Virus record (IMG/VR): IMGVR_UViG_3300006114_000002
Coordinates: 1-63,125 of that record
Length of the DNA stretch: 63,125 nucleotides
Direction: 5' to 3' (one strand)
Source: a virus
Lineage: Duplodnaviria > Caudoviricetes
A program made the position numbers and the translations under genes. Positions 1 through 63,125 of this stretch are shown piece by piece (within the stretch, counting starts at the first letter, position 1; each line of letters begins with the position of its first letter). The notes beneath the pieces were generated by a model, which was given only the letters and a program-made list of their open reading frames with translations, was not told the DNA's origin and searched no databases.

Positions 1-110
1 CAACCTAGTCAGAGGCGCATGAATAAAGGCTCTCCTTGCGGCGTGGTCTTTTTACAACACTCATCGATCCTAGCCAATCCGGTCATTTTGCCAAATTTTG
101 CAAAAAAAAA
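1..110. repeat. Terminal direct repeat (identical to 63016-63125); probably assembly circularisation overlap
   Basis: Base-for-base identity of first and last 110 nt. Confidence 0.95.
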
Positions 111-228
111 TTTTAGGGGGTTCGCTTTTTAGGCAGGAAATTTTAACGAGCTTGCGACCTGAGTGGGTCCCCCGCCCCCGCCTGCCGACGGGACCCTAAA
201 CGGTGGTGCGGTGCAACAAAAAGGCCCA

Positions 229-348
229 GCACCACATTGGTGCACACGTGCACCGCTTTAGTGCATGCCTGCACCACAATGGTGCACTGGCGCACTGGCA
301 TAGTGCACGCCCGCACCGATACGGTGCACAGGTGCACTGGCTTGGTGC
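229..348. promoter_or_regulatory. Six tandem NtrC-type sites GCAC-N7-GTGC at exact 21-bp period
   Basis: Sites start at 229, 250, 271, 292, 313, 334; half site at 355; 270-286 is TGCACCACAATGGTGCA, matching the NtrC consensus TGCACCA-N3-TGGTGCA. Confidence 0.75.
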
Positions 349-371
349 AGGTGTGCACCGGTGTGGCTCTA

Positions 372-496
372 AGGGTTTACCCTATCAGGGTCTACCCCTA
401 GTTGTTGGACATCCTACCTGGTAATGAGAATCATTCGCATCTGGCCGGGAGCCAGAGCAGCACTTAGGGTAAACCCTAGGTTGTTGGACATCCTAT
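372..496. promoter_or_regulatory. Repeated palindromic operator-like motifs of unknown regulators
   Basis: AGGGTTTACCCT 372-383, AGGGTCTACCCC 387-398, TAGGGTAAACCCTA 465-478; GTTGGACATCCTAY 404-417 and 483-496. Confidence 0.55.
420..441. promoter_or_regulatory. Fur box
   Basis: GGTAATGAGAATCATTCGC matches GATAATGATAATCATTATC at 15/19. Confidence 0.7.
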
Positions 497-498
497 CT

Positions 499-520
499 GG
501 TAATGAGACGCATTCGCATT
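499..520. promoter_or_regulatory. Fur box (second copy)
   Basis: GGTAATGAGACGCATTCGC, 13/19 to consensus; part of a 79-bp-period duplication. Confidence 0.55.
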
Positions 521-536
521 TAGCCACTCAGGCAAG

Positions 537-583
537 GCACCACTTTGGTGCACGGGCGGATTGGCAGGGCACCACTTTGGTGC
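537..583. promoter_or_regulatory. Pair of NtrC-type sites 32 bp apart
   Basis: GCACCACTTTGGTGC at 537-551 and 569-583. Confidence 0.7.
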
Positions 584-763
584 GGGCTGATACCGGACGC
601 ATTTAAACGGCCTAGGAGCGATTTGTTTGAAAAGACATACGTAGCTATTAGCCACGCTGCGATCGTGCCTTATAGGCTCTATACGCACGCCTGAGAAGGT
701 CTCTCGTGATGTGGCCTGACTATCAGCCAATGGGGTCTAATAGCGAAAACCTATCGATGCCAG

Positions 764-793
764 TTTACCTGTACGGATTGACCATAGTAGTAA
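764..793 (+). promoter_or_regulatory. Early promoter repeat 1 (sigma70-like)
   Basis: TTTACC-TGTACGGATTGACCATAG-TAGTAA; one of four near-identical copies, each upstream of a gene. Confidence 0.7.
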
Positions 794-839
794 GCAGGCA
801 GATAGCCTGACAACCACACAACACAACAGGAGTATTAAC

Positions 840-1487
840 ATGGTTAAATTATCAATTACTGGCAAATTGGACGGCATCAAGTCATGGAGCCTGCAGGCTC
901 TCGAGACGTGCCCCGGTTCAGTCAAGGCCGACGGCGAGCTAGTCGACGCATGCCGTGGCTGCTATGCCACTACAGGCAACTATAACTACCCAAACGTAAA
1001 GGCTCCACGTGCCGCCAATAAGTTAGACTGGCAGCGTGATGGCTGGGTCGATGACATGGTGCAAGCGCTCGGCGATTCACGCTATTTTAGATGGTTTGAC
1101 TCGGGCGATATGTACTCGCTCAATTTGGCCAAGAAAATGCGTGAGGTTATGGCTCGCACGCCGTGGGTTAACCATTGGCTCCCGACTCGCATGGCTAAAT
1201 TTCCAAAATTCGCCGACATTATCGGCGCAATGGATAGCCTGCCTAACGTCAAGGTTAGATTCTCGAGCGACAGCGTCGAGGGCGAGTTTACTCGCGGCGT
1301 ACATGGCTCAGTTATCGTAAGCGACAGCGAGTCGGTTCCGGCCGGTGCGACACTGTGCCGGGCGTACGACAGCAACGGTAAGTGTAACGGGTGCCGGGCA
1401 TGCTATGACAAGACGGTAGACGTTATCGCCTACCCTGCGCACGGCAAAAAGATGGCCAAGGTCATCATGCTAAAAAAGGCAGCATAA
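840..1487 (+). CDS. GP88-like Cys-rich (possible Fe-S) phage protein
   Basis: CPG..CxxCYA, FRWFDSGD, HWLPTR and C-terminal CxxCxxC motifs; AGGAG RBS. Confidence 0.7.
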   Translation: MVKLSITGKLDGIKSWSLQALETCPGSVKADGELVDACRGCYATTGNYNYPNVKAPRAANKLDWQRDGWVDDMVQALGDSRYFRWFDSGDMYSLNLAKKMREVMARTPWVNHWLPTRMAKFPKFADIIGAMDSLPNVKVRFSSDSVEGEFTRGVHGSVIVSDSESVPAGATLCRAYDSNGKCNGCRACYDKTVDVIAYPAHGKKMAKVIMLKKAA

Positions 1488-1493
1488 ACACCG

Positions 1494-1526
1494 AGCCCGG
1501 CAGCCGAGAGGTTGCCGGGCTTTTTT
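1494..1526 (+). terminator. Rho-independent terminator
   Basis: AGCCCGGCAGCC-GAGA-GGTTGCCGGGCT plus T run. Confidence 0.85.
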
Positions 1527-1528
1527 GT

Positions 1529-1558
1529 TTTACATGTGCGGATTGACCATAGTATTAT
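1529..1558 (+). promoter_or_regulatory. Early promoter repeat 2
   Basis: TTTACA-TGTGCGGATTGACCATAG-TATTAT. Confidence 0.75.
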
Positions 1559-1582
1559 CACCAACCACAGCGGAGCGACACC

Positions 1583-1972
1583 GTGAAATTCATTAAAAAA
1601 AACCCACGCACGATTGAGATAGAGCGCAACGATTGCGTAGTGCGTGCGATGACTATCGCATACGACTCGAGCTATGAGATTGTCCACAAGGCCTGCGAGG
1701 CGGCCGGGCGCCGCCCGCAGCGTGGCATGAACGGGTACCAAGTGGCCAAGGCTCTCGAGGTATTGACAGGGCGTGAGGATGTCAGCATGACGTGGTACAC
1801 GCTCAAGAGTGACCGCCCGACAATGGCTCAATTCGTACGGGCAAACCCCAAGGGACGTTTTTTGACGATCATACACGGGCACGCCGTGGCACTGATAGAC
1901 GGCGTCTACTATGACGCATCAGAGCCCGGCGCTCGACACAGGGTCTGGGCATACGCCAGACTGGACAAGTAA
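1583..1972 (+). CDS. Hypothetical early protein (DCVVRA...H motif, papain-like possibility)
   Basis: GGAG RBS, GTG start, lies between a promoter and a terminator. Confidence 0.65.
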   Translation: MKFIKKNPRTIEIERNDCVVRAMTIAYDSSYEIVHKACEAAGRRPQRGMNGYQVAKALEVLTGREDVSMTWYTLKSDRPTMAQFVRANPKGRFLTIIHGHAVALIDGVYYDASEPGARHRVWAYARLDK

Positions 1973-1976
1973 CACC

Positions 1977-2006
1977 AAGCCCGGGCAGCTGCCCGGGTTT
2001 TTTTTT
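1977..2006 (+). terminator. Rho-independent terminator
   Basis: AAGCCCGGGC-AGCT-GCCCGGGTTT plus T run. Confidence 0.85.
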
Positions 2007-2033
2007 ACATGTACGGATTGACCATAGTAGTAT
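2004..2033 (+). promoter_or_regulatory. Early promoter repeat 3
   Basis: TTTACA-TGTACGGATTGACCATAG-TAGTAT. Confidence 0.75.
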
Positions 2034-2067
2034 GCAGTACAAAAACACACACAACCGGAGCACTAAA

Positions 2068-2262
2068 ATGGATATCGCACAAAGGCTAAAAAACAAATTG
2101 GCCATCAACGCCGCCAAGTTTGAGGTAAGAACCAACCTGCACCCGTCGATCGGCGCACTAATGCGCAAAGACGGCGTCCAATACTACGCATTTATCGGCG
2201 GCGAGTGTATCGAGGACACGCCAGAAAATTTAACCAAGTTACTAATCGCACAGGGGCAATAA
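2068..2262 (+). CDS. Hypothetical early protein
   Basis: GGAG RBS before ATG 2068. Confidence 0.6.
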   Translation: MDIAQRLKNKLAINAAKFEVRTNLHPSIGALMRKDGVQYYAFIGGECIEDTPENLTKLLIAQGQ

Positions 2263-2394
2263 AATGCAAAGATCAAGGGCAGCAGCCCGGCGTGAGCGCC
2301 GGGATTGGGTACAGGCAATTAGCTACACTCTGGCCGCATCGGCGGCCGTGACACTATTTGGTTTTACATATCTTAAAGCAATGGGAGCAATATA

Positions 2395-2580
2395 ATGAAC
2401 AAATTAACATCACAAGACAGGCAATCGATGCTCGAGACAATCTGGCACGCTCTCGAGTGCTACCGTGAAGACTGCATACCGGAGGGCGAGGAGGGATACG
2501 ACGAGGAGTGGAGCGATATATGCACGGCGATGGCGTGGATCACCGAGGATCTAGAGAAATTCGACAACCAAGAGGGGTAG
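2395..2580 (+). CDS. Small acidic hypothetical protein
   Basis: GGAG RBS; acidic 61 aa. Confidence 0.65.
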   Translation: MNKLTSQDRQSMLETIWHALECYREDCIPEGEEGYDEEWSDICTAMAWITEDLEKFDNQEG

Positions 2581-2582
2581 TA

Positions 2583-2612
2583 TTTAGGTGTACGGATTGA
2601 CCATAGTAGTAT
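2583..2612 (+). promoter_or_regulatory. Early promoter repeat 4
   Basis: TTTAGG-TGTACGGATTGACCATAG-TAGTAT. Confidence 0.7.
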
Positions 2613-2640
2613 CACCAACCAACCAGACAGGAGCAACACC

Positions 2641-2877
2641 ATGGACATGTACCAAATGCTAGAGCATATGATCAGGCAGGCAGACAGCTACAAATGCCTG
2701 TGCCTGAGAAAAGACGGGGCAGTATTTCCACGAGGCAGACTGCTACACTTCAAAAAGCTAGACGCAAACACGTACGAGGTATCGGACGGGCACCAGACTG
2801 AGATTGTCGACGCCCTGCTAGTCGACTATACGTCATTCTGCAACCACTCGAAGTATGTACGGAGGATCGAGGCATGA
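2641..2877 (+). CDS. Hypothetical early protein
   Basis: AGGAG RBS; ATGA overlap with next gene. Confidence 0.65.
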   Translation: MDMYQMLEHMIRQADSYKCLCLRKDGAVFPRGRLLHFKKLDANTYEVSDGHQTEIVDALLVDYTSFCNHSKYVRRIEA

Positions 2878-3092
2878 GCCGAAAACTGCCAACTTTTTAC
2901 GACAATTTCAACTATCAGGAGTATGACGCAATGAAGACCATAACGACACGAGAGATTTTAGGATGGCTGCACATCGATGACGAGGGCAATCGTGACGTTT
3001 GGGACAAGGCGAGGGATTGGCCGGGTACGTGGGTACCGCTATACACAAACGAGACCATACAATGCGACGAGAATGGAGTGCCGATCAAATGA
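2874..3092 (+). CDS. Hypothetical early protein
   Basis: ATGA coupling at both ends. Confidence 0.6.
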   Translation: MSRKLPTFYDNFNYQEYDAMKTITTREILGWLHIDDEGNRDVWDKARDWPGTWVPLYTNETIQCDENGVPIK

Positions 3093-3379
3093 CTACAGTC
3101 ACCAGAATGTACCAAGAGCAGTGGGAGAGACGATACAGCCCGCTAAAAAACCACATGCGTGATGCGGAGGCCTTCGATGGCTGCCTCTACCAACCATACG
3201 GGCTCGATGACGAGTATATCCGCAATATTCACAACGCAACGCCGAGCCACGTCTGGACAGTCGTATCGTGCGACGAGGGCGACTTTATACTCTCCGGTTG
3301 GCACTACGCCAACGTGATCGGTTACCTGATCACGCTACTTCCGGCGCAGGGGGATGTGGAGGTCGACCTAAATGACTAG
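3089..3379 (+). CDS. Hypothetical early protein
   Basis: ATGA overlap suggests start 3089. Confidence 0.6.
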   Translation: MTTVTRMYQEQWERRYSPLKNHMRDAEAFDGCLYQPYGLDDEYIRNIHNATPSHVWTVVSCDEGDFILSGWHYANVIGYLITLLPAQGDVEVDLND

Positions 3380-3668
3380 ACTATACTCAAACTCACTATT
3401 CAACAGGCTCTATCAGCCGAGACTGATAGGGAGACCGATAAGGTACGAGAGCCGACTAAAAAAGTATCCCAAAAATAAAAAGTTACCAATCATACAGAGT
3501 CAGCGTAAAATATGCCAGACTCGAGCCAATTTGATCCTAGGGCGTCGTATGCTGCTAAGTGTCCGAGGCCTGAGATTCAAACACTCGGCATCGATATTTT
3601 TAAGGAGACTACGTGCCAAAAGACAAAAACAGCCTGAGCGATTATCTTCGTTCCCTGTACGGTATTGA
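3372..3668 (+). CDS. Basic hypothetical protein
   Basis: GGAGG RBS; overlaps sigma gene start. Confidence 0.4.
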   Translation: MTRLYSNSLFNRLYQPRLIGRPIRYESRLKKYPKNKKLPIIQSQRKICQTRANLILGRRMLLSVRGLRFKHSASIFLRRLRAKRQKQPERLSSFPVRY

Positions 3669-4185
3669 CCCCCTCTCTGTCGAGGAGGAGGTCAGGCTCG
3701 CCGGGCTGATACAGGCCGGCGATGAGGATGCGCTAGATAAACTCGTGACCCATAATCTGAGGTTTGTCGTATCTATACTTAAGGAATTAGCCTCGTGGCA
3801 CCATGGATCGATACCGATCGAGGACTTGGTTGGTTATGGTAATTATTGGCTACTGTATGCAGCCAAAAGGTGGACGCCGACAAACGGTGCCCGGTTCGCC
3901 ACGTACGCCAAGCAGTTTATACTTAAGGGCGTCCGGAGGGATGTCGACAACACGTCCAACATTATCCGTCTACCGGTCAACGTCAGCGAGGAGATCAAGC
4001 GCATGAGGTACGCAGAGAGAATCCTATCCCAGAGTCTGGGGCGTGAGCCCCGCCCGGGTGAGGTGGCGCAGCACATGGGTATCGGTGAGGAGCGGGTGCA
4101 GCAGCTGCAGGGTTATTTAATCAGGGAGCCGAGCAGTCTCGAGGCTCACAGGCAGGATCAATTAACAGAGGAGAGCGAGGAGTGA
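3613..4185 (+). CDS. Phage sigma70-family factor, regions 1.2, 2 and 3 only (no region 4)
   Basis: YLRSL..PLS.EEE..LA, LVTHNLRFVV, EDLV..GN..L, RFATYA, IIRLPV, LGREP; ends at EPSSLE (start of 3.2 linker); AAGGAG RBS. Confidence 0.88.
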   Translation: MPKDKNSLSDYLRSLYGIDPLSVEEEVRLAGLIQAGDEDALDKLVTHNLRFVVSILKELASWHHGSIPIEDLVGYGNYWLLYAAKRWTPTNGARFATYAKQFILKGVRRDVDNTSNIIRLPVNVSEEIKRMRYAERILSQSLGREPRPGEVAQHMGIGEERVQQLQGYLIREPSSLEAHRQDQLTEESEE

Positions 4186-4523
4186 TAAAACTAGACGAGG
4201 AGCAGGCGGCGGCCTACGCACGCTACAAGCGTGCGGCTGACGCCGTGGGTATAGGCAAGCGTGTAAGGGGTGCATGGGTGCCCTTTAGCGACGTTTTGGG
4301 CTCACTAAAACCGGACGGTGTAGCTACACCCCTATTTATACCGAACGATGCTTGGCTCGAGTATAAATTGGCCGTAGAGGCGTGGCTGAGGGTCGAGCCA
4401 AGGTTTAGACACGATGAGAGGCTGAGATCAACGAGGGGCGACTATGATCACGAGGACTCGTGGGATGAGCCAGAGGCTAGAGTAAAGGATACCTTTACAC
4501 TAATAAAGGAGGGCGAGTCTTGA
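4182..4523 (+). CDS. Hypothetical protein
   Basis: GTGA overlap with sigma gene. Confidence 0.65.
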   Translation: MIKLDEEQAAAYARYKRAADAVGIGKRVRGAWVPFSDVLGSLKPDGVATPLFIPNDAWLEYKLAVEAWLRVEPRFRHDERLRSTRGDYDHEDSWDEPEARVKDTFTLIKEGES

Positions 4524-4759
4524 ACAGCGGGGAGATGATATTCACGGCACTAAGTATATTTTTGGCGGCACTCGGACTCTCGGGTCTCGTGCTGAGGATC
4601 CACATTTGGTACAGGAACAGGAATGAGCGAGATTGAAAAACTTAGGCATGCTGCAAGGAGCGCACTCGAGGCGCTAGAGAACCCCTCTACGGTATCGGTG
4701 CAGCACGCACTGTGGCTGCTGAGGGAAATTTTAAACGATAAGAGCGAGGATATAGATCC

Positions 4760-4966
4760 ATGGATGGAGACAAGATGAAGCGTGCGATACTAATCGAGCA
4801 TCACGATGGTGATAAACTGACGATGATCGTCTGCAATGATGACAACGGCGGCCACATATTTGACGCACTATGGGACCCGACCGAGGCAAACACGCCAGAG
4901 AATCGTAAAAAATTCAGGGGGTGGGTCTCGACAATGTTAAAGAGAAAAGGATACACAGATGAGTGA
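4760..4966 (+). CDS. Hypothetical protein
   Basis: ORF in tightly packed operon. Confidence 0.6.
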   Translation: MDGDKMKRAILIEHHDGDKLTMIVCNDDNGGHIFDALWDPTEANTPENRKKFRGWVSTMLKRKGYTDE

Positions 4967-5144
4967 AAATTCAACAGCATCGGCGATACTAATCGCAGTA
5001 TGGGTGGCGGCCTTCTTTTTTATGGGCATGGCTCTCGTGACGAGGGGCGGGTCTCCGACGCCGACCGTGACAGTCGTATACGACTGCAATACCAACACGG
5101 GCGATGCACCGCCCGCAGTACTTCAATTGTGTGGGAGAAAATGA
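4959..5144 (+). CDS. Small membrane protein
   Basis: N-terminal hydrophobic helix. Confidence 0.55.
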   Translation: MSENSTASAILIAVWVAAFFFMGMALVTRGGSPTPTVTVVYDCNTNTGDAPPAVLQLCGRK

Positions 5145-5388
5145 TGCACCCGTCAGGACTGACACTTGAACGATGGAACTGGCCATTCAAGACGGACGAG
5201 GAGCGTGCCACGATACAGGCTTGGCTCGAGGGCGTACCGAAAGACTTGTCAGACAAGTCGATACCATTCTAGGGGCGCAAAATGATTAGTTTATTGACAG
5301 CGTTTGTCTTAGTGCACTTTGATGCGCATGGGGGTTGGTGGATAGCGTTTGGGTTGGTGCTAATAGGAAAAGCTATAAAGGAAATGCA

Positions 5389-5733
5389 ATGAACGAAACA
5401 TTTTTACTGTATGTATTAACCCGTTTAAATAAAATTGTTATCACATCCACGATCATAGGACTAATGACTCTATTTGTGATGCTAATAATGACGGCTCACT
5501 GGTGGTCAGAACTTGAAAATGAAAAAATACCTTCGCTTAAAAAGTTTTGGGCGATACCAATTGCCTCCCTGCTTATCAGCGTCTTTGTGCCGACTCAGAA
5601 GGATGCGCTCTTCATCATTGCAGGAACCAAAGTGATCGAGCTTGCCAAGGATCCTGACATTAAACGTGTGGCGGGTAAGTCGGCGCAACTGATTGAGAAG
5701 TATATTGACAATCTTCTTGAGGAAAAGAAATGA
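5389..5733 (+). CDS. Membrane hypothetical protein
   Basis: Two hydrophobic segments; AAGGA RBS. Confidence 0.6.
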   Translation: MNETFLLYVLTRLNKIVITSTIIGLMTLFVMLIMTAHWWSELENEKIPSLKKFWAIPIASLLISVFVPTQKDALFIIAGTKVIELAKDPDIKRVAGKSAQLIEKYIDNLLEEKK

Positions 5734-6029
5734 AAGAGCAAAAGTTTTTTAGGGGGGACTTGGTTCAGATAGCTGATGATCTTGGCAAGGCAATGAGCCA
5801 CTTTGAAAAGGGATGCAAAGCTATTGTTATTGGTACCTATGCAGAGCTGTCCTATGACGATAACAAAGTGGATGATTACCAGCTTTATATTTTGCCCCAC
5901 CAAGGCACTTCAGCTTGGTATCACACGCACCAACTAACCCTGATCGAACCAAACCGATATGACTTACTGCCGAAAAACAACCGCACACGACTTAACTGGG
6001 AAGCGCAACAAGCGAGGGATGCAAAATGA
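5730..6029 (+). CDS. Hypothetical protein (SH3-like possible)
   Basis: ATGA coupling; KF..GDLV motif. Confidence 0.6.
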   Translation: MKEQKFFRGDLVQIADDLGKAMSHFEKGCKAIVIGTYAELSYDDNKVDDYQLYILPHQGTSAWYHTHQLTLIEPNRYDLLPKNNRTRLNWEAQQARDAK

Positions 6030-8004: not shown

Positions 8005-10290
8005 ATGAAACCGACAGCACTACCAGTCAATTTTGGCAACATACCAAACGAGCTAAAGAGGATCAACCGTTGGGTGATGTGGCGCTATCTCCCCGTCGGG
8101 GAGGAGCAGGACCAGAAGTACAGCAAGGTACCGATGACTACACGTGGATCAAAGGCCTCATCCACAAACCCAATGACGTGGACGGACTTCTTTTCGGCGC
8201 AGGAGGCGTACAACACCGGCAATTTTGATGGGCTCGGTATCGTATTTGATGGCACCGGGAACCTGACAGGGATCGATATAGACGACTGCCTGACGAATGG
8301 TGAGCTGTCACAGTTTGCGAAGGATATACTCGACAAGGTCGAGGGCTACTGCGAGGTGAGCCCATCAGGTACCGGGGTCAAGATATTCACACTGACGGAG
8401 GGCGTGGATAAGTTTGTCGATCACTCTATCGGTCTGGAGGTCTACACAAAGGGTCGGTACTTTACGGTCACGGGGCACCACCTGCAGGGCACCATGCCCA
8501 CCGAGTTGCAGGATATGACGCCGCACATACCCAAGAGGACGATCACGCACTCTGGTGACGCATTCGAGGACTACAAGCCGCCACTTGAGGATTGGACGAT
8601 AGAGCGTGTCGAGTCCGAAATCATGCCCCACTTGGATCCAAACGGGTACGAGAACTGGCTCAACGTGGGAATGTGCCTACACCACCAGTTTGAGGGTGAT
8701 TATGAGGCTCTAGAGCTCTTCGATCGATGGTCCGAGGCCGGCACCACGTACGCAGCCGGGAGGTGCCAGGATAAGTGGCACACCTTCAAGGGATCGGGGC
8801 AGACGCTGCGATCACTGATCTACCTAGTCGGTCAAAAGAAACTCAAAGAAGCCCTCGATAATGGTGACATCGTGCTCGAGGCCAACAACCCGATCGATAA
8901 CGCCAGAAAATATTTGGAGTCCGAGCACAACGATGAGGAGGGTTTTAGACTCGTGCACTACGCAGGAGACTTCTACATATACACCGGGACCCACTACAGG
9001 CCGGTAGAGGAGGCCACGGTACGATCCGGTCTCTACATGTACCTGACGGCGTGTAAAAAGATGGTCAAGGGCAACCTAGTACCATTCAACCCCTCCCCTG
9101 CCGTCGTAAACGGCGTTCTGGACGCTTTAAAGGCGATCGTACACTTGGAGCAGGTGCCTGAGTCTAGACCGCCCGTATGGCTCAAGAATTTTGTCTCAAG
9201 CAAGCCACCCGCCGCACAGTTGGTATCGATGCGCAACGGGCTGTTTCACTTCGAGACTGACGTCCTACTGCCGCACTCGTTGGGGTTTTTTAATACGCAC
9301 TCTCTGCCCTACAGGTACGACCCGACTGCGACGTGCCCCAACTGGGACAAGTTTTTGAACGATATCTGGCCAGATGATCAGGAGTCTAAGGATCTGCTGA
9401 TGGAGTACATCGGGTACGTGCTATCTGGTGATACCAAGCAGCAGAAGTACCTATCCATCATCGGCCCACGCCGGTCTGGTAAGGGTACGATCAACCAGAT
9501 CCTACTCTCGTTACTCGGGGAGGAGAACGTCGTCAGTCCTCAGCTATTTGAGCTGTGCGATACGTTTGCGCTACAAAACTGGCTAGGTAAGCCGCTCGCA
9601 TCATTCTCTGATGCACGCATGACGCACCAGAATACGATCGGCGTCGTATCTCAGCTGCTGAGGATAGTCGGGGGTGATCCCGTCACGGTCAACAGGAAGA
9701 ACAAGGAGGCACTCAACGTCTTCCTGCCGACTCGGATCATCATGTTCTCCAACGAGGCCCTGCAGTTGTCGGAGAACAGCAACGCACTATCTGGCCGGAT
9801 GCTCATGCTGCAGATGAGGACGAGCTTTTTTGGGAAGGAGGACATCAACCTATCCGATAGGCTGACGAAGGAGCTCTCGGGCATATTCAACGCCTGCATG
9901 GCGGCCAACAGGAGGAGGCTTGCCAGACCCGGTGAGAGGTTTATACAGCCACGCTCGGCGCAGGAGACGCTCGATATGGCTGCAGAGATTGCAAACCCGA
10001 TGTCATCATTCATAGAGGATGTGCTAACATACGACGAGGATGGAATGGTCGACAAGGACGACATGTTTGCACTCTACAAGCGTTGGGCCACCCGGCAGAA
10101 TATTCAGCCTGGCACCTCACTCAGCTTTAAGAAGAGATTCATAGCATCCACGCAGGACCACGGCGTCAGCTCGCACAGGGACAGGACCGGGGGCAGTAAG
10201 GGTGAGTACGTATACCGTGGCGTCCGACTGAAGGAGAAGGCGCAGAGGTATATAGACTCGATCAGCGACTTTGAGAAGGAGGAATTTTGA
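8005..10290 (+). CDS. Primase-polymerase / PriCT-2 / D5-like SF3 helicase
   Basis: GIDIDDC, EVSPSGTGVKI, WLNVGMCLH, Walker A GPRRSGKGT. Confidence 0.92.
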   Translation: MKPTALPVNFGNIPNELKRINRWVMWRYLPVGEEQDQKYSKVPMTTRGSKASSTNPMTWTDFFSAQEAYNTGNFDGLGIVFDGTGNLTGIDIDDCLTNGELSQFAKDILDKVEGYCEVSPSGTGVKIFTLTEGVDKFVDHSIGLEVYTKGRYFTVTGHHLQGTMPTELQDMTPHIPKRTITHSGDAFEDYKPPLEDWTIERVESEIMPHLDPNGYENWLNVGMCLHHQFEGDYEALELFDRWSEAGTTYAAGRCQDKWHTFKGSGQTLRSLIYLVGQKKLKEALDNGDIVLEANNPIDNARKYLESEHNDEEGFRLVHYAGDFYIYTGTHYRPVEEATVRSGLYMYLTACKKMVKGNLVPFNPSPAVVNGVLDALKAIVHLEQVPESRPPVWLKNFVSSKPPAAQLVSMRNGLFHFETDVLLPHSLGFFNTHSLPYRYDPTATCPNWDKFLNDIWPDDQESKDLLMEYIGYVLSGDTKQQKYLSIIGPRRSGKGTINQILLSLLGEENVVSPQLFELCDTFALQNWLGKPLASFSDARMTHQNTIGVVSQLLRIVGGDPVTVNRKNKEALNVFLPTRIIMFSNEALQLSENSNALSGRMLMLQMRTSFFGKEDINLSDRLTKELSGIFNACMAANRRRLARPGERFIQPRSAQETLDMAAEIANPMSSFIEDVLTYDEDGMVDKDDMFALYKRWATRQNIQPGTSLSFKKRFIASTQDHGVSSHRDRTGGSKGEYVYRGVRLKEKAQRYIDSISDFEKEEF

Positions 10291-15880: not shown

Positions 15881-16053
15881 GGACACGTCGGGAGACGCTC
15901 CGTTACTCGGTCCTTACGACGCCGGATAAACGTAACCGGCACAAAAAATACCCCTCTAGTTACTTAGGTGGCTAGACGCAGCCCTTCCGGGCTTGCTTTG
16001 CACGACAATACCCCCCAAGCCTCTTAACAATGCTCACCCCGGGGGGTTTTCTT
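15880..16053 (+). ncRNA. Candidate structured RNA or leader (five hairpins)
   Basis: ORF-free; hairpins at 15886-15897, 15921-15940, 15956-15975, 15978-15996, 16011-16046 followed by U tract. Confidence 0.45.
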
Positions 16054-17851: not shown

Positions 17852-17887
17852 CGGGTAGACGATACGGCCCCGACTGAAGTCCGTATC
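17852..17887 (+). promoter_or_regulatory. H-type pseudoknot in SSB mRNA leader
   Basis: CGGG(17852-55)/CCCG(17869-72) crossed with GATACGG(17861-67)/CCGTATC(17881-87); extended -10 TGTGGTAAAAT just upstream. Confidence 0.55.
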
Positions 17888-17909
17888 ACAACGTCAAAAA
17901 GGTAGTCTT

Positions 17910-18428
17910 ATGTCAACAGCAAATAAAGTGAAGGTCGTTACAGGCAAAGTACGTTTCTCATACGCAAACGTATTCACACCCAAGGCATCCGTCGAGGGCG
18001 GCCCACTCAAGTACTCCGTATCACTCATTATCCCCAAGTCCGATACCGAGACAGTCAGCAAGCTCAAGAAGGCGTTTGAGGACTGCAAGGCAGGCTCTGC
18101 AGGTTATTTTGGTGGTGCTATCCCCAAGCTCCTGAAGGGTGGCCTACGTGACGGAGATGAGGAGAAGGATGATCCGGCTTACGCCAACAGCTACTTCATC
18201 AACGCCAACAGCTCCAACAAGCCAGGCATTGTCGATGCTGATACTCAGACCATCATCGACCCGAGCGAGTTTTACTCGGGCTGCTACGGTCGTGCATCCG
18301 TCACGTTTTACCCCTACAACGCACAGGGCTCAAAAGGCATTGCGTGCGGATTGAACAACCTCCAGAAACTGGAGGATGGTGAGCCACTCGGTGGCGTCTC
18401 TAACGCTGCGGCAGACTTCGCAGTGTAG
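17910..18428 (+). CDS. DUF2815 single-stranded DNA-binding protein
   Basis: VRFSYANVF, KYSVSLIIPK, LRDGD, FYSGCYGRAS, GIACGLNN.QKL.DGEPLGG, DF C-terminus. Confidence 0.92.
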   Translation: MSTANKVKVVTGKVRFSYANVFTPKASVEGGPLKYSVSLIIPKSDTETVSKLKKAFEDCKAGSAGYFGGAIPKLLKGGLRDGDEEKDDPAYANSYFINANSSNKPGIVDADTQTIIDPSEFYSGCYGRASVTFYPYNAQGSKGIACGLNNLQKLEDGEPLGGVSNAAADFAV

Positions 18429-18436
18429 TAGTAAGT

Positions 18437-18510
18437 GCCCCATTAGTTAAACGGCATAATGCTAGATTTGTAATCTTGAGTTGGTGGTTCAATTCCATCA
18501 TGGGGCACCA
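18437..18510 (+). tRNA. tRNA-Thr (UGU)
   Basis: GCCCCAT/ATGGGGC acceptor stem, loop TT-TGT-AA, T-arm GGTGG-TTCAATT-CCATC, encoded CCA; one T.T mismatch in anticodon stem. Confidence 0.85.
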
Positions 18511-18518
18511 AAAAACCC

Positions 18519-18539
18519 AACCCGCTTCGGCGGGTTTTT
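18519..18539 (+). terminator. Terminator-like hairpin after tRNA
   Basis: AACCCGC-TTCG-GCGGGTT-TTT. Confidence 0.75.
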
Positions 18540-18567
18540 CATCAACAATACAATAACCACACTGGCC

Positions 18568-20358
18568 ATGACAGAAACATATCTCGGCATAGAAATCAAC
18601 CTGGAACGTGACAAACTATTTGATGAGTTAGGCATCAAGCGATTGAGAGAGTCTTACATGCGAGAGGATGAGCCCTCGCCGCAGCACAGATTCGCATTTG
18701 TATCCAAGACATTCAGCAGCAACCCGGAGCATGCACAGAGGCTGTATGATTACGCAAGCAAGCACTGGCTCTCGTACTCGACACCGATCCTGTCCTTTGG
18801 CAGGTCAAAGAAGGGCATGCCCATATCTTGTTTTTTAAACTACATTGAAGACTCAGCGGAGGGGCTCGTTGAAAATTTATCCGAGACGAACTGGCTATCC
18901 ATGCTCGGGGGTGGTGTCGGTATTGGCTTTGGCATTCGATCCGCCGACGATAAGTCCACAGGAGTATTGCCACATCTTAAAATTTACGACTCTTCTTCCC
19001 TGGCATATCGTCAAGGAAAGACTAGACGAGGCTCGTATGCAGCCTACCTGGATATCAGCCACCCCGACATCATCCCTTTCATTGAGATGAGAAAACCCAC
19101 GGGGGATCAAAATCTACGCTGCCTGAATATGCACCACGGCATAAACATCAGCGACGAGTTTATGGGGATACTGGAGAGGTGCATGCTCGATCCAAACGCC
19201 TCCGATGATTTTGAGCTCAGGGATCCTCACTCTGGCGTCGTGCGTGATACGGTATCAGCCAAACACCTCTGGCAGCAGATACTGGAGCTGCGGATGCACA
19301 CCGGTGAGCCCTACATACACTTCATCGATACAAGCAACCGGCATCTGCCTGAGTGGCTCAAGGAGAAGGGCCTCAAAGTCCACCAGTCCAACCTGTGCTC
19401 CGAGATTATCCTCCCGACCAACGAGGAGAGGACGGCCGTCTGCTGCCTCTCCTCACTCAATCTGGAAAACTATGACGAGTGGAAGTCTGATAGTTTTTTC
19501 CTAAAAGACGTCGCAGAGATGCTCGACAACGTGCTGCAGTACTTCATCGACAACGCCCCGGATACGATATCCAGGGCCCGATTCTCGGCCGAGAGGGAGC
19601 GCAGTATTGGGGTTGGTGCCCTCGGGTTCCACGCATACCTGCAGCGCAATGGGATACCATTCGAGGGCGTCATGGCCAAGGTCGCAAACAGGAAGATTTT
19701 TAAACACGTGAGGGAGGGCCTGAATGCTGCGAACAAGATCCTGGGGACCGAGCGTGGCGAGGCGCCTGACGCTGTTGGTACTGGAAATCGTTTTAGTCAC
19801 GTTATGGCCATTGCTCCTAATGCGAGCTCTTCCATCATCATGGGTAATACTAGCCCTAGCATTGAACCTTACCGGGCTAATGCTTACCGTCAGGATACTC
19901 TATCGGGTGCTTACCTCAACAAGAACAAGTGGCTCGATCTGATTATCCGTGAGCGTACGAAGTCCGATGAGGAGTACAACGACGTCTGGTCATCGATCAT
20001 CGCCAACGATGGCTCCGCCCAACACTTGGATATGTTGACGGGTCTGGAGAAGGATGTATTTAAGACGTCGATGGAGATTGATCAGCGCTGGGTGATTGAC
20101 TTGGCGGCAGATCGCCAGGAGCATATAGACCAGAGCCAGTCCCTTAACCTATTCTTCAGGCCGGATGCGCACATCAAGTACATCCACGCAATCCACTTCA
20201 TGGCGTGGAAGAAGGGCATCAAGACGCTCTACTACTGCCGCTCTGAGAAGATAGGCAAGGCCGACAAGGTATCCAAACGAATTGAGCGTGAGGTGATCAA
20301 GGAGCTTGACATGGCTCAGATTGCTCAGGGCAACGATTGCATAGCGTGCGAGGGTTAA
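18568..20358 (+). CDS. nrdA: Ribonucleotide reductase class I alpha subunit (no ATP cone)
   Basis: ISCF, QSNLCSEI, AIAPNASSS, KTLYY, C-terminal CIACEG. Confidence 0.95.
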   Translation: MTETYLGIEINLERDKLFDELGIKRLRESYMREDEPSPQHRFAFVSKTFSSNPEHAQRLYDYASKHWLSYSTPILSFGRSKKGMPISCFLNYIEDSAEGLVENLSETNWLSMLGGGVGIGFGIRSADDKSTGVLPHLKIYDSSSLAYRQGKTRRGSYAAYLDISHPDIIPFIEMRKPTGDQNLRCLNMHHGINISDEFMGILERCMLDPNASDDFELRDPHSGVVRDTVSAKHLWQQILELRMHTGEPYIHFIDTSNRHLPEWLKEKGLKVHQSNLCSEIILPTNEERTAVCCLSSLNLENYDEWKSDSFFLKDVAEMLDNVLQYFIDNAPDTISRARFSAERERSIGVGALGFHAYLQRNGIPFEGVMAKVANRKIFKHVREGLNAANKILGTERGEAPDAVGTGNRFSHVMAIAPNASSSIIMGNTSPSIEPYRANAYRQDTLSGAYLNKNKWLDLIIRERTKSDEEYNDVWSSIIANDGSAQHLDMLTGLEKDVFKTSMEIDQRWVIDLAADRQEHIDQSQSLNLFFRPDAHIKYIHAIHFMAWKKGIKTLYYCRSEKIGKADKVSKRIEREVIKELDMAQIAQGNDCIACEG

Positions 20359-20359
20359 T

Positions 20360-21346
20360 ATGATTAAGAAAGTAAAACTGAATTTGACGGACGAGCGTAG
20401 CTACTTTAAGCCATTCACCTACCCCTGGATGTATGAGGCGTGGCTCAAGCACGAGCAGTCCTCCTGGCTGCATACGGAGGTCCCCATGATGGAGGACGTA
20501 CAGGACTGGAAGAAACGTCTCAGCAAGGAGGAGAAGCAGTTCCTGACGCAGATCTTCCGATTCTTTGTCCAGGGGGATATTGACGTCGCAGGGGGGTATG
20601 TTAAGAATTACCTGCCCTACTTCCCGCAGCCAGAGGCCCGCATGATGCTCCTAGGGTTTGCTGCACGTGAGGCTCTACACGTGGCGGCGTACTCACACCT
20701 GATCGAGACTCTCGGTCTGCCCGAGACGACATACAACGAGTTTCTCGAGTATGCGGAGATGAAGGAGAAGCACGAGTACGTCATGGATATCTCGGCCCAG
20801 AATACGACCAAGGAGAATACTGCGACGCATATTGCGGTATTCTCAGCATTCACGGAGGGCATGCAGCTATTCTCCTCATTCATCATGCTGCTCAATTTCC
20901 CCAGGCACGGGAAGATGAAGGGTATGGGGCAACTGATCACTTGGTCGATTGTGGACGAGACGCAGCACGCTGAGTCCATGATCAAGCTATTCAGGACCTA
21001 CATCGAGGAGAATCGTGAGATCTGGAACGATGAGCTCAAGGGCCGCATCTATACCATCGCCGATAAGATGGTCCAGTTAGAGGACAAGTTTATCGATCTG
21101 GCGTTCCGTATGGGTGACATGGAGGACTTGACGCCGGAGGATGTAAAGAAGTACATCCGCTACGTGGCTGACCGTAGACTGATATCCCTCGGACTTAAGG
21201 GCATATTCAAGGTCAAGAGAAACCCACTACCCTGGGTTGAGGAGATGATCAACGCCCCGACCCACACGAATTTCTTTGAGAATCGTGCCACGGACTACGC
21301 CAAGGGGGCACTATCCGGGAGTTGGGGGGATGTCTGGGCGGCATAG
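20360..21346 (+). CDS. nrdB: Ribonucleotide reductase class I beta subunit
   Basis: REALHVAAYS, TEGMQLFSSF, VDETQH, NFFENRATDY. Confidence 0.95.
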   Translation: MIKKVKLNLTDERSYFKPFTYPWMYEAWLKHEQSSWLHTEVPMMEDVQDWKKRLSKEEKQFLTQIFRFFVQGDIDVAGGYVKNYLPYFPQPEARMMLLGFAAREALHVAAYSHLIETLGLPETTYNEFLEYAEMKEKHEYVMDISAQNTTKENTATHIAVFSAFTEGMQLFSSFIMLLNFPRHGKMKGMGQLITWSIVDETQHAESMIKLFRTYIEENREIWNDELKGRIYTIADKMVQLEDKFIDLAFRMGDMEDLTPEDVKKYIRYVADRRLISLGLKGIFKVKRNPLPWVEEMINAPTHTNFFENRATDYAKGALSGSWGDVWAA

Positions 21347-59897: not shown

Positions 59898-59934
59898 TAC
59901 AACTACTTATGCACAAAATTTGTTTTATTCGCCC
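59898..59934 (-). promoter_or_regulatory. Late promoter (bipartite)
   Basis: GGGC-N15-TGTGCATAAGTAG-TTGT-A. Confidence 0.78.
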
Positions 59935-61373
59935 TAGACTGCGTAGGGGTTGTAAAACTTCTTTCTGCGATCGTCGGCGTAGTCGTAGTCCCTGGCTGGT
60001 AGAGGATCCAGCTGGAGCCATCCCGAGTCCCTCAGTACACGCAGTGCCTGGCTCAGTGAGTCCACGTAGTCATCGTGCCCTCCCGCCTCTGGGAACGAGC
60101 AGACCTGCCTCATGAATCGTTTGGCCCATGGTGCTGGCTCTCCCGGCTTCTCTGGATCCTCCGGTATGTAGACCTTGCCCTTGGCTATCAGGGGTGCGAC
60201 GATGTTGATGCGCTGCACTTTGTCGGCCTTTCCGGGGTTGTATGCCCTCACCGGGACGCCAGAACCCTGCAGCTCCTGCACCAAAGATATCCCTGCAGAC
60301 TTATCCTCCATCAGTATCAGGTCCGCCTTTCTTCCTTTTGCGAAGGTGTTGTCGGCGCCGTAGACGACCTCCTTGAAGTCGGATACGACCCTCCTCCTGA
60401 GTGTCGGGTAGGCCAGGTGATCATCCCAGGCATCCAGGAGCATGACGCACGTCCCGCCATCCAGCTGCTCAAAGACTCCCCATATCTCGCACGCCGTCGG
60501 GTCGTTGTGTGTCTTCTCGCTCGTCGCAGGATCGTATGATGCGATGACGTACTCCAGGTCTGGCGTTGGTTTGTTTGCGGGCCACATCTTGAACCACCTC
60601 CGCTTGACGATGCCTGCATCCTCGGGGTCCAGGATCTCTCCATAGATCTCCTGCTTGCCCAGGTCTGTACCCTCGTACGTCTCCAGCTGCTTAAAAAACG
60701 TCTTGGATAGGTTTGCCTTGTTATCGTACGAGCTGGCGTTGACGACGTACACGTCTCCACCAATCTTGCCCTCATTCAAGTCGACTATCAACTCCCTCGG
60801 TTTGGGTGTCGTCGTGATGATCTGCTGTACTCGGCTGATCTTTGGATCCTTCAATCGAAGCGTGAACTGCACGCCATCATAGGCGTCATCCAGGTACTCA
60901 AATGCGCACAGCTCATCAAACCACGCACCGTGAAACTGTTTACCCCGGTAGCGTTCAGGCTCGGATGCCGGTATCCCCTGTATGATGGACCCGTTTATGA
61001 GGGTGATCTCAAAGAGAGACTTGTTGTAGTCCTTGATCAGGGACTTGGGTATGATGTTGAGGAGCCCCGAGTCGCCCTCGAAGCACGTCGCCCTAATATC
61101 GTTCGATGTCGGTGCCGTCACGAGCCAGCGTGTCCCTGGGTGCCTCCATGCCCTGATCCCGATCCAGTGGCTCGCAGTGTGAGTCTTGCCCGATCCACGC
61201 CCTGCGAGCATCAGAAACGTATCATACTCGCCATCCTCGGGCTCCCTCTGGTGGGGGAGGGCCTGCATGGCCCACCTGACCTGCCACAGCGTCGCATCCA
61301 GCTCCGGTTTTGGCCAGTGTTTGTTGGCCTTTGCGAACTGGGACAGCAGCTGCTCCTGTTTTTTTGTCAGCAT
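59934..61373 (-). CDS. terL: Terminase large subunit
   Basis: AGRGSGKT, WFDE, TTTP, SYD.A, EDKSAG, HDDYVDS. Confidence 0.95.
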   Translation of the reverse strand: MLTKKQEQLLSQFAKANKHWPKPELDATLWQVRWAMQALPHQREPEDGEYDTFLMLAGRGSGKTHTASHWIGIRAWRHPGTRWLVTAPTSNDIRATCFEGDSGLLNIIPKSLIKDYNKSLFEITLINGSIIQGIPASEPERYRGKQFHGAWFDELCAFEYLDDAYDGVQFTLRLKDPKISRVQQIITTTPKPRELIVDLNEGKIGGDVYVVNASSYDNKANLSKTFFKQLETYEGTDLGKQEIYGEILDPEDAGIVKRRWFKMWPANKPTPDLEYVIASYDPATSEKTHNDPTACEIWGVFEQLDGGTCVMLLDAWDDHLAYPTLRRRVVSDFKEVVYGADNTFAKGRKADLILMEDKSAGISLVQELQGSGVPVRAYNPGKADKVQRINIVAPLIAKGKVYIPEDPEKPGEPAPWAKRFMRQVCSFPEAGGHDDYVDSLSQALRVLRDSGWLQLDPLPARDYDYADDRRKKFYNPYAV

Positions 61374-62347
61374 AGCGTTATAAACCCCTCACCGATGCAG
61401 AAAAACCCGCCGGTATCGACAAAAATGCGTTTTTTTGGCTCAATTTTTGTAATTTTGCGTATAAATCTGCGTCTGAATCGATTTGCGGGGTCTTTTTTGT
61501 GCTGATTCTCGATCAGTGGTATCCCCGTCCTGAAAAATAGCCTAAATTTTGCCCCCGTCTTCTTCTCGACCATGACTGTCCTGATCCCGAGCGACTCCAC
61601 AACGCCCTGTATCCGCTTAACCAGCGAGTAGTCACGGCTCATGAACCTGAATACGTCCATCTTTTTGTCGTAGGAGTGCCTTTTGTCAAAAAATATGCCC
61701 CTCAGTAGGTCAATCCTCTGATGCTCTGAGGATATAAGGTACTCATCCGGTATCGTGTGCTGCTTCTCTGGGTACTTTGTCAAAAAAGCGTGCTGTATGT
61801 TGGGCCTGAGCTCCAGGTGTATCCTGTCGTACTCCCTCTTTACACGCTTGGCGTTGTAGCCGTACCTCCTGAAGTGGTTGACGTAGCTGTTGACCATGTG
61901 TTTCTCGACGGACAGGTTGGGTGTGTTGGATGTCCTCGTGAACCATACCCCGACTATGAAGGGGGGTACCGGCAAATTTACCTCCGGCAGCTGTATAGGT
62001 TGGGTATTTTTTACAGAGAAACGGTACCGGTTGTCTGCCTCAGGCATTGTCAGGCCAGCCTCCAGTATCTCGTCAATCGTCTTGATCATCCCCTTGGCTT
62101 TGTACCCCCTCGATCGTATGTTGCGTATGTTCAGGTTCTCTACGGGTAGCGTCGTGTTGCCGTCCGCCAGTATCGATACACCATCATCAAACACGACCTC
62201 ATAGCAGTCGCCCTCATCATAGACCTGGATCGTCTTGATCTCCTGGGGCATTCCCATCTCGTCAAAGACATAGTCTCCAGGCTTGAGGAGGCCTGCGAGC
62301 GTCCAGCCCTCGGATGTTATGACGGGCGTATTGACCTCAATCGCCAT
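61367..62347 (-). CDS. Free-standing intein-like protein (Hint + LAGLIDADG), splicing residues degenerate
   Basis: AI..NTP..T..GW...G.LK.GD.VFD..G.P; CYEV.F.DG..I.AD; LPVPP...G.W; IP.EYL..S..QR..LL.G; ends FITLC-stop. Confidence 0.75.
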   Translation of the reverse strand: MAIEVNTPVITSEGWTLAGLLKPGDYVFDEMGMPQEIKTIQVYDEGDCYEVVFDDGVSILADGNTTLPVENLNIRNIRSRGYKAKGMIKTIDEILEAGLTMPEADNRYRFSVKNTQPIQLPEVNLPVPPFIVGVWFTRTSNTPNLSVEKHMVNSYVNHFRRYGYNAKRVKREYDRIHLELRPNIQHAFLTKYPEKQHTIPDEYLISSEHQRIDLLRGIFFDKRHSYDKKMDVFRFMSRDYSLVKRIQGVVESLGIRTVMVEKKTGAKFRLFFRTGIPLIENQHKKDPANRFRRRFIRKITKIEPKKRIFVDTGGFFCIGEGFITLC

Positions 62348-62618
62348 TCTGCTTACCCAGTACCCAGGTATTGAGATACTTCCCGATAGGGTCACGTATC
62401 TGTCTCTGTATATTCTCAGGGAGGGACTGTATCTGTACCTCCTTCGTCAACATCATGCGGTACTTCATGTACTGCAGTATGGTCTTGGGAAAGACGTGCT
62501 CGGGTATATCGACCTCGTAGAAGTTTGTCGATGTCCACAGGAAGACACGAAAGCCTTTCACGTTCTGCTTTCGATCCTCGAGTGCCCCCTGAATTTGGTA
62601 TGCGTATTCTTGATCCAT
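62337..62618 (-). CDS. Hypothetical protein, probably leaderless
   Basis: ATG coincides with predicted +1 of late promoter. Confidence 0.65.
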   Translation of the reverse strand: MDQEYAYQIQGALEDRKQNVKGFRVFLWTSTNFYEVDIPEHVFPKTILQYMKYRMMLTKEVQIQSLPENIQRQIRDPIGKYLNTWVLGKQNGD

Positions 62619-62654
62619 ACACCCACTAATGCAAACTCGTAACCATTGCAGCCC
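62618..62654 (-). promoter_or_regulatory. Late promoter (bipartite) for terL operon
   Basis: GGGC-N15-TTTGCATTAGTGG-GTGT-A. Confidence 0.75.
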
Positions 62655-62894
62655 CTTTTTAAAAAATTAAAATTAAGACCCGCATAAACATTGGCCTGGA
62701 CACGGTGTGACGGGGTTTGCGTGGCGTCTTTATTAGTTCTAGCTGTTTTTAGGCTATTTTTAGGACTCTTAAAAAGACGTAGAATGGCTCTGGCATTGGC
62801 TCCAGAGTACCGTGACGGGGTTCCAACCCGCATGCCTGTTGGGTTTGGCTGGGATTTCCACTCCCTTATCTTCAATCCTAGACGCTGGAGAAGC

Positions 62895-63050
62895 GCATGG
62901 ATAAAGGCTTTGACTAGGTTGACTAACTCTTTTTATTATTATTATTATTATTATTATTAAAAAATAAAAAATAAATATAGAAGCAGTATAGTGGGATTTT
63001 GACAATAATCCTAGCCAACCTAGTCAGAGGCGCATGAATAAAGGCTCTCC
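62895..63050. other. Putative replication origin B, inverted homolog of origin A
   Basis: TGACTAGGT iteron, (ATT)n AT-rich core, TCCTAGCCA/ACCTAGTCA; 63032-63050 is an 18/19 reverse complement of 7739-7757. Confidence 0.65.
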
Positions 63051-63125
63051 TTGCGGCGTGGTCTTTTTACAACACTCATCGATCCTAGCCAATCCGGTCA
63101 TTTTGCCAAATTTTGCAAAAAAAAA
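63016..63125. repeat. Terminal direct repeat (copy of 1-110)
   Basis: Identity with window start. Confidence 0.95.

Follow-up and report, generated by a model that had tools for sequence, protein, structure and literature searches.

Duplicated Fur-type boxes in the gene-free leader of a freshwater phage as candidate sites for a host regulator

The window, which is the whole 63,125-nt stretch of phage DNA analysed here, contains two Fur-like boxes (420-440 and 499-519) that form part of a duplicated cassette. The box is identical in sequence to bacterial Fur operators, is conserved across phages and lies in gene-free DNA close to the terminal repeat of the genome. From these features we infer, with a probability of about 0.45, that the host's Fur protein binds the boxes within a platform of host-regulator sites beside the terminal repeat, and that this platform couples early infection to the state of the host.

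Genome, leader and duplicated cassette

The record is that of a complete virus of 63,125 nt, classed with direct terminal repeats, in which the 111-nt repeat at 1-111 is identical to 63015-63125. Plus-strand genes run from 840 to 23375 and encode a GP88-family protein, a sigma factor, a primase, a helicase, an exonuclease, a Gp2.5-type SSB, RNR subunits and PolA, and the minus strand from 23376 to 62618 holds the structural and packaging genes. Because the plus-strand genes start at 840 and the first minus-strand gene has its ATG at 62618, positions 62619-63014 and 1-839 together form a gene-free region of ~1.2 kb that separates the divergent operons and adjoins the terminal repeat. The leader follows directly after the left repeat and ends at the first early gene (840-1487, plus strand, GP88 family), which served to fetch the leaders of related phages. 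At the other end of the genome, the gene-free stretch from the first minus-strand gene to the right repeat (62619-63014) contains an AT-rich (TTA)n tract (about 62920-62980) directly before that repeat. Sigma-70-like sites in this (TTA)n or A-rich tract (TTGACT-18-TATTAT, 10/12) point at the repeat.

The phage is present in DNA sequencing runs of freshwater and lake metagenomes, with no RNA run listed as containing it. A megablast search of positions 1-6000 against cultured phages gave zero matches, and no close cultured relative was found. FUR and Sigma54_activat domains are absent from every frame of the phage, and any Fur acting here would therefore be that of the host.

A repeat search delimits two copies of 60 nt each, at 387-446 and 466-525, that are 83% identical in an ungapped alignment and start 79 nt apart, so that the duplicated unit with a 79-bp period reported in an earlier note on this DNA is real. 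Each unit is composed of an AGGGT-NN-ACCCT palindrome, the element GTTGGACATCCTA and a Fur-like box, and none of the three occurs elsewhere in the 63-kb genome. In each copy the box lies 35 nt from the palindrome. Copy A has two palindromes and copy B has one, because the palindrome sites start at 372, 387 and 466: the first, AGGGTTTACCCT, occupies 372-383; the second, AGGGTCTACCCC, is a degenerate site with one mismatch at 387-398, where repeat copy A starts; and the third, TAGGGTAAACCCTA, is perfect over 14 nt at 465-478. The element GTTGGACATCCTA follows at 404-416 and 483-495, on the plus strand in both cases.

The cassette is flanked by NtrC-like palindromes of the form GCACC-N5-GGTGC (up to 1 mismatch). 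To the left, an array phased at 21 nt spans 226-360, with sites at 229, 250, 271, 313 and 334, and to the right two sites at 537 and 569 span 537-584. Exact NtrC-like sites are confined to 229-569 within the phage genome, and the earlier placement of the cassette between two NtrC-like clusters is likewise borne out. Variation among three variant lake strains was assessed from contigs of 4 DNA runs. There are 0 variable sites in 361-526 and 13 elsewhere in 1-716, an invariance that backs conservation of the cassette weakly because the strains share variants.

The two boxes stand out from the rest of the window by sequence. With up to 3 mismatches permitted, GGTAATGAGANNCATTCGCAT matches the window only at 420-440 and 499-519, and 0 of 100 shuffled sequences reach two matches. 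A Fur-type 21-mer consensus, searched with up to 6 mismatches on both strands of the 63,125 nt, finds only 422 and 501. The classical 19-bp Fur consensus is GATAATGATAATCATTATC. Box 1 (GGTAATGAGAATCATTCGCAT, 420-440) differs from it by 4 mismatches at 420-438 (15/19), is the sole such site in the window and contains a 7-1-7 dyad, ATGAGAAT-C-ATTCGCAT, in which 7/8 positions are symmetric. Box 2 (GGTAATGAGACGCATTCGCAT, 499-519) is the weaker copy and a marginal match, with 6 mismatches to the 19-bp consensus by manual count (13/19), 4 mismatches to the 21-mer consensus and a dyad that is symmetric at 5/8 positions. Phage copies of the box elsewhere are perfect 10-1-10 palindromes.

The earlier statement that no Fur box overlaps an evident promoter applies to box 2 and has to be qualified for box 1. 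A weak sigma-70-like site (TGGACA-17-AATCAT, 406-434, 9/12) lies over box 1, with its possible -35 hexamer, TGGACA, inside the first copy of GTTGGACATCCTA; the same register in copy 2 presents ACGCAT, a poor second hexamer. Across the phage contexts of the box, sigma-70 promoters reading into it are not enriched, whether strong sites are defined as at least 10/12 (10 found vs 8.6 expected) or as at least 11/12 (6 found vs 3.9 expected).

The gene-free region yields no Rfam match and no plus-strand terminator. These two results, together with a 79-nt period that is too short, led to the rejection of tandem Fur-controlled sRNA genes of the RyhB/PrrF type as a candidate. On the minus strand of 629-813, a leftward transcript of ~130 nt could run from a promoter-like site (813 to 784, 9/12) to a terminator-like hairpin (657 to 639); this small RNA would be antisense to the first gene's leader and has no match in Rfam.

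The box in bacterial genomes and in other phages

The exact 18-mer of box 1 (AATGAGAATCATTCGCAT, 423-440) was searched for in a database of one genome per prokaryote species, comprising 596 billion bases. At least 120 bacterial genome stretches contain it, most of them from Proteobacteria, with many from Burkholderiales and Methylophilaceae, vs ~17 occurrences expected by arithmetic from the database size and equal base frequencies. Eighty loci with 1.5-kb flanks were taken, 73 of which have an ORF directed away from the 18-mer with its start no more than 350 nt from it, and 125 such ORFs were compared with Pfam. Iron or metal genes lie beside the 18-mer at 32 of the 73 testable loci. These are a TonB-dependent receptor (Plug) at 17 loci, FeoB at 4, ZnuA with or without FUR at 3, and other iron genes at 8 (imelysin, the Fe2+ transport protein Iron_transport, TonB_C, ChaN, ferritin, fur and, twice, isochorismate synthase). 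Solute-binding proteins of a type that includes ferric-iron binders, which does not imply iron specificity, account for 6 more loci, and the remaining 35 have nothing iron-related.

Because the identical 18-mer precedes iron-uptake genes and box 1 agrees with the consensus at 15 of 19 positions, the box reads as a Fur-type operator sequence and a candidate Fur site, a designation supported well beyond resemblance. The Fur-like identity that the earlier note had assigned to it is thereby upheld. The box is like bacterial Fur operators, which are 19-bp sites with a 7-1-7 dyad, in its consensus match, its dyad and the occurrence of its 18-mer at iron-uptake promoters. It is unlike them in its location within a phage genome, where the nearest gene is hundreds of bases away and a clear promoter is lacking.

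The conservation of the box among phages was followed in two ways. Related leaders were collected from upstream of the GP88-family gene in 80 viral contigs at ~70% protein identity. The box is identical (18/18) in four of these leaders (L022, L032, L035 and L038), twice each with near-copies and amid unrelated flanks, and is near-identical in five others (L023, L026, L066, L067 and L068). In viral contigs at large, the exact 18-mer is present in at least 123 stretches, which correspond to 123 distinct contexts and 53 nucleotide clusters, the largest with 43 members. Among 61 long dereplicated contexts, 50 place the box outside any ORF of at least 90 aa, in gaps with a median length of 934 nt that reach 400 nt or more in 46 of the 50; the other 11 place it within ORFs, among them one cluster with a coding motif. 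Multiple boxes within 400 nt are common, with two or more in 45/116 contexts and three or more in 17/116. An exact search of viral contigs with a 26-nt mid-plus-box string returned 0 stretches.

A blastn search of 412-446 against cultured phages matched 65 records. Among the top matches listed, most phages measure 102-117 kb and are matched in DNA that has no annotation, and the two that were examined are Tequintavirus. A literature search found no paper that reports Fur operators to be conserved across families in the gene-free regions of phages.

The other two elements of the cassette differ in their distribution. In the window, AGGGTNNACCCT is exact at 372-383 and 466-477, has its one-mismatch copy at 387-398 and matches nowhere else. 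The count by itself is not significant (1.9 expected, with 31/100 shuffles reaching 3), and the weight of these sites lies in their clustering, not in their number. AGGGT-NN-ACCCT is found beside the Fur box in 26/116 phage contexts, mostly at a distance of 20-120 nt, and in 7/80 related leaders. In the relatives, the 9-mer AGGGTWWAC is more frequent than its reversed control both upstream (22 vs 1) and in early genes (43 vs 5).

The earlier note had regarded the palindrome and GTTGGACATCCTA as two operators of host regulators and had suggested that counts of the palindromes in bacterial genomes would identify the regulator. Such counts reveal a modest enrichment of AGGGT-NN-ACCCT and identify no regulator. 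Five candidate host genomes contain 10 sites vs 4 for the reversed control, and 121 genomes of one Burkholderiales family contain 22 sites of TAGGGTWWACCCTA, in 18 genomes, vs 4 control sites. The genes near the bacterial sites are heterogeneous, with LysR-type regulators at 3 related loci and otherwise unrelated genes. A host regulon was consequently rejected as a candidate, there being no regulator that could be named, and a bacterial locus with two copies of the palindrome, considered as possibly phage-related, proved not to be so. Because the enrichment in hosts is modest and the neighbours are heterogeneous, AGGGT-NN-ACCCT is treated as a conserved phage-family motif that would act as a partner site next to each box. 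GTTGGACATCCTA is exact only in the two cassette copies. Its 12 other matches in the window all have 3 mismatches and are at the level of chance (14 matches found in total vs 15.5 expected). With up to 1 mismatch it occurs in 3/116 contexts; it is not conserved and is specific to the lineage of this phage. As host sites, the two proposed operators are thus not sustained.

Regulator sites in related leaders and in known phages

Dereplication of the related leaders gives a set of 61, which consists of 60 relatives and the window. The first leader element throughout the family is a C-rich motif, CCCCGCCCCC at 170-179 on the plus strand of the window and CCCCTCCCCC in relatives, which is present in 37/61 leaders and in 35 of these stands on the plus strand ahead of the other scored sites. 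Behind the C-rich motif, exact DnaA boxes (TTATCCACA) are present in 15/61 leaders as arrays of 2-4, or of 2-5 with the Fur-box contexts included, some with an 11-nt period. Examples of these arrays (L010, L013, L071, L124 and others) occupy the leader slot of the Fur boxes. Sigma-54-type promoters such as TGGCACGGATCTTGCA are present in 12/61 leaders, often ~15 nt past the C-rich motif. Fur boxes occur in 7/61 leaders and GCACC-N5-GGTGC sites in 14/61. Among the 116 Fur-box contexts, 11 contain exact DnaA boxes and 19 contain perfect LexA-type CTGT-N8-ACAG sites.

The sigma-54 promoters located ~15 nt after the C-rich motif are those of L014, L020, L023, L027, L034, L041 and L045, and others lie directly upstream of genes (L018, L043 and L069), sometimes with 2-3 in tandem. 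It would be unusual for the early genes of a phage to be driven by sigma-54 promoters, and the window has lost the sigma-54 element.

The gene-free region of the window has no DnaA box, with 1 mismatch permitted, and no LexA box. It also has no sigma-54 promoter of at least 9/11, and its best sites are of 8/11, on the minus strand at ~211-226 and 62629-62645. The first of these, GGGCCTTTTTGTTGCA, retains both invariant dinucleotides; it points leftward and has the NtrC-like array (21-nt phasing) immediately upstream. The picture of many regulators rests on the relatives, since the window is without DnaA, LexA and good sigma-54 sites. The earlier proposal that the ORF-free region gathers sites for host regulators is accordingly clearest among the relatives, where DnaA, LexA and sigma-54 sites fill the same slot, and does not extend to those three in the window. 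Two smaller assignments fared less well. The site TGCGGTGCAACA (207-218), previously labeled as PhaR-like, resembles GCAGTGCAACAT, which is placed after the sigma-54 promoter in L014, L034, L041 and L045; it looks instead like a conserved family motif, and the 9-mer TGCAACATT is present in 13/61 leaders. The LysR label given to ATAG-N7-CTAT (740-754) was not confirmed.

Clusters of host-regulator sites in lytic phages are known for CtrA, with isolated cases for LexA and Spo0A. Several phages outside the family of the window carry comparable arrays. The left terminal repeat of T5 has Fur-type boxes at 9472, 9507, 9576 and 9611, which are annotated as 'direct repeat C' and 'palindromes E-I', together with DnaA boxes at 9358-9439 and a perfect LexA-type palindrome, annotated as 'palindrome D' (9330-9349). 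All three types of site adjoin nick 1 and the repeat boundary, and the array sits behind terminators, not at a promoter. The untranslated part of the repeat of Salmonella phage Kenya-K16 has four boxes, one of them a perfect AAATGAGAATCATTCTCATTT, along with the LexA-type palindrome of T5 and two exact DnaA boxes. Cronobacter phage CR3 (Vequintavirinae; L347, record 79639-80598) has four tandem Fur-type boxes, spaced by 29-38 nt, in an unannotated gap of 958 nt.

For the T5 injection-stop region, 8 DnaA boxes are described in the available text of the Davison preprint (10.1101/866236), where DnaA bound to them is proposed to halt injection; neither 'Fur' nor 'LexA' appears as a word in that text. 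Like this region, also termed Repeat Region 3, the leader lies at a terminal repeat, is rich in repeats, lacks genes over ~1 kb and has arrays of near-identical Fur-type boxes (AAATGAGAATCATT and others). DnaA and LexA sites are shared by T5 itself and the relatives of the phage, whereas the window has NtrC-like and AGGGT palindromes in their place. Homology to T5 stops at the ~20-nt box, and megablast gave no match for 1-6000. The T5 region comes after the pre-early genes and belongs to a repeat of 10 kb; the leader here precedes the first genes and follows immediately on a repeat of 111 nt. Two-step injection, a feature of T5, would be conjectural for this phage.

In lytic phages of Alphaproteobacteria, clusters of CtrA sites in gap regions or terminal repeats bind CtrA and regulate a phage gene, an arrangement termed 'lytic deferment', and have arisen independently in several phage lineages, according to the available part of the report (PMC9437464). 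As in those phages, the candidate sites for host global regulators in the window are clustered in one intergenic or terminal region and absent elsewhere (422 and 501 for the Fur-type consensus; 229-569 for the NtrC-like sites). The two cases differ in that the regulators here would be Fur and others, in a different host group, and in that the evidence is experimental for CtrA and drawn from sequence comparison for the window. Clusters of host-regulator sites in phage gap regions are thus a known kind of element, and what appears to be new is the proposed involvement of Fur and the wider pattern across families.

Possible roles of the leader

In the favored reading, the boxes at 420-440 and 499-519 would be operators for the host's own Fur and would constitute one module of a gene-free 'landing pad' between the terminal repeat, which it adjoins, and the early genes. 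The pad of this phage would comprise Fur boxes flanked by NtrC-like palindromes, with DnaA, LexA or sigma-54 sites taking the same slot in relatives. Each of these regulators binds DNA, or acts, only under particular physiological conditions of iron, nitrogen, DNA damage or growth, and the incoming genome would most likely read the state of the cell via the pad and gate an early step to match. Candidates for the gated step are early transcription through the leader and the handling of the genome end. A checkpoint on host state is favored because the regulators are state-dependent and because the CtrA clusters, as described in the available part of PMC9437464, offer a precedent. Several observations count against this reading. 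No clear promoter that Fur could control is present in the window, which offers only the 9/12 site over box 1; promoters into the box are not enriched across phages; box 2 is weak; and the T5 array lies behind terminators.

A Fur box on a multicopy plasmid derepresses Fur-controlled genes, as the FURTA assay exploits. The earlier note envisaged a corresponding effect in infection, in which multiplying phage genomes would soak up the host's Fur, derepress iron uptake and so feed the di-iron RNR. The phage does encode class I RNR subunits (18481-20358 and 20360-21346), arrays of two or more boxes are common among the phage contexts, and a sponge needs no promoter, in keeping with boxes that are not tied to promoters. 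However, there are just two boxes in this genome, one of them weak, the fixed position by the genome end is left unexplained, and the DnaA, LexA and sigma-54 replacements in relatives would each require a titration story of their own. T5-like phages with the same arrays also trigger rapid degradation of host DNA early in infection, as stated in the available text of 10.64898/2026.04.02.716235, and because of this rapid degradation the derepression of host genes would be pointless for them. Titration is conceivable but unsupported, is a poor fit to T5-like phages and to two boxes, and is considered quite unlikely. The arrays may alternatively serve a structural or entry-gating complex at the genome end that resembles the T5 injection stop. 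Bound host proteins would pause, anchor or protect the incoming end, or would aid terminase at the repeat boundary, and tight binding would matter over the identity of the protein. The pad begins 60 nt behind the 111-nt terminal repeat, the T5 injection-stop region combines Fur-like boxes, a LexA-type palindrome and DnaA boxes by nick 1, the interchangeability of site types among relatives is as such a role would have it, and DnaA is proposed to stop T5 injection (in the available text of 10.1101/866236). Set against these points, sequence homology to T5 is lacking apart from the short boxes, and the idea presumes that the repeat marks the physical ends, that a particular end enters first and that entry has two steps. 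Fur and LexA are not membrane proteins, and conditional regulators would be an odd choice for a purely structural role. Entry gating of this kind is judged unlikely.

A replication origin would account for the 21-nt phased palindromes as iterons for a phage initiator, with the Fur boxes and the AGGGT palindromes as accessory sites. Besides the phased array, the AT-rich tract at 62920-62980, the DnaA-box arrays of 15/61 relatives and a primase-helicase-type gene (8005-10290) are compatible with an origin. The window, however, has no DnaA box, the cassette itself is not AT-rich, and we know of no role for Fur at origins. The replication genes look T7-like (Gp2.5-type SSB and PolA), and T7-like phages use transcription-primed origins, which also counts against this explanation and leaves it very unlikely. 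Finally, phage-encoded regulators could bind the whole cassette, with the likeness to Fur operators being coincidental. The palindrome AGGGT-NN-ACCCT travels with the box in 26/116 contexts and has no coherent regulon in candidate hosts, and many of the early ORFs have no known family. Coincidence is nevertheless hard to reconcile with an identical 18-mer that precedes bacterial iron-uptake genes and with a box kept across unrelated families (T5-like and CR3-like) that share no obvious regulator, and this explanation is judged highly improbable.

The reading of the pad as a sensor of host state can be extended, much more tentatively, beyond this phage. It is possible, although on balance doubtful, that unrelated virulent phages, namely T5-like phages, CR3-like myoviruses and a large freshwater family, have converged on a landing pad of interchangeable host-regulator operators (Fur, LexA, DnaA and sigma-54/NtrC) on the DNA that enters first. 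Regulators bound to this DNA would decide entry and early transcription, and the T5 injection stop would be one case. If host Fur, and in relatives LexA, DnaA and sigma-54, do bind the DNA that enters first, infection by abundant lake phages would be tied to the state of the host with respect to iron and other nutrients, and host mutants of E. coli K-12 would allow a direct test of the mechanism behind the T5 injection pause.

Other features of the genome were noted in the course of the analysis. The phage sigma factor (3613-4185) has regions 1.2, 2 and 3 and lacks region 4; the overlapping next ORF (4182-4523, 113 aa) has no family match and might supply sigma region 4. The large terminase is represented by two adjacent minus-strand ORFs, 59934-61373 and 61367-62395, that both match terminase large-subunit families and could reflect a split gene or an inserted element. 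Among the replication genes, Rfam matches mark an abiF RNA (16011-16047), a DUF2815 RNA (17852-17912) and a tRNA-Thr(TGT) (18437-18510).
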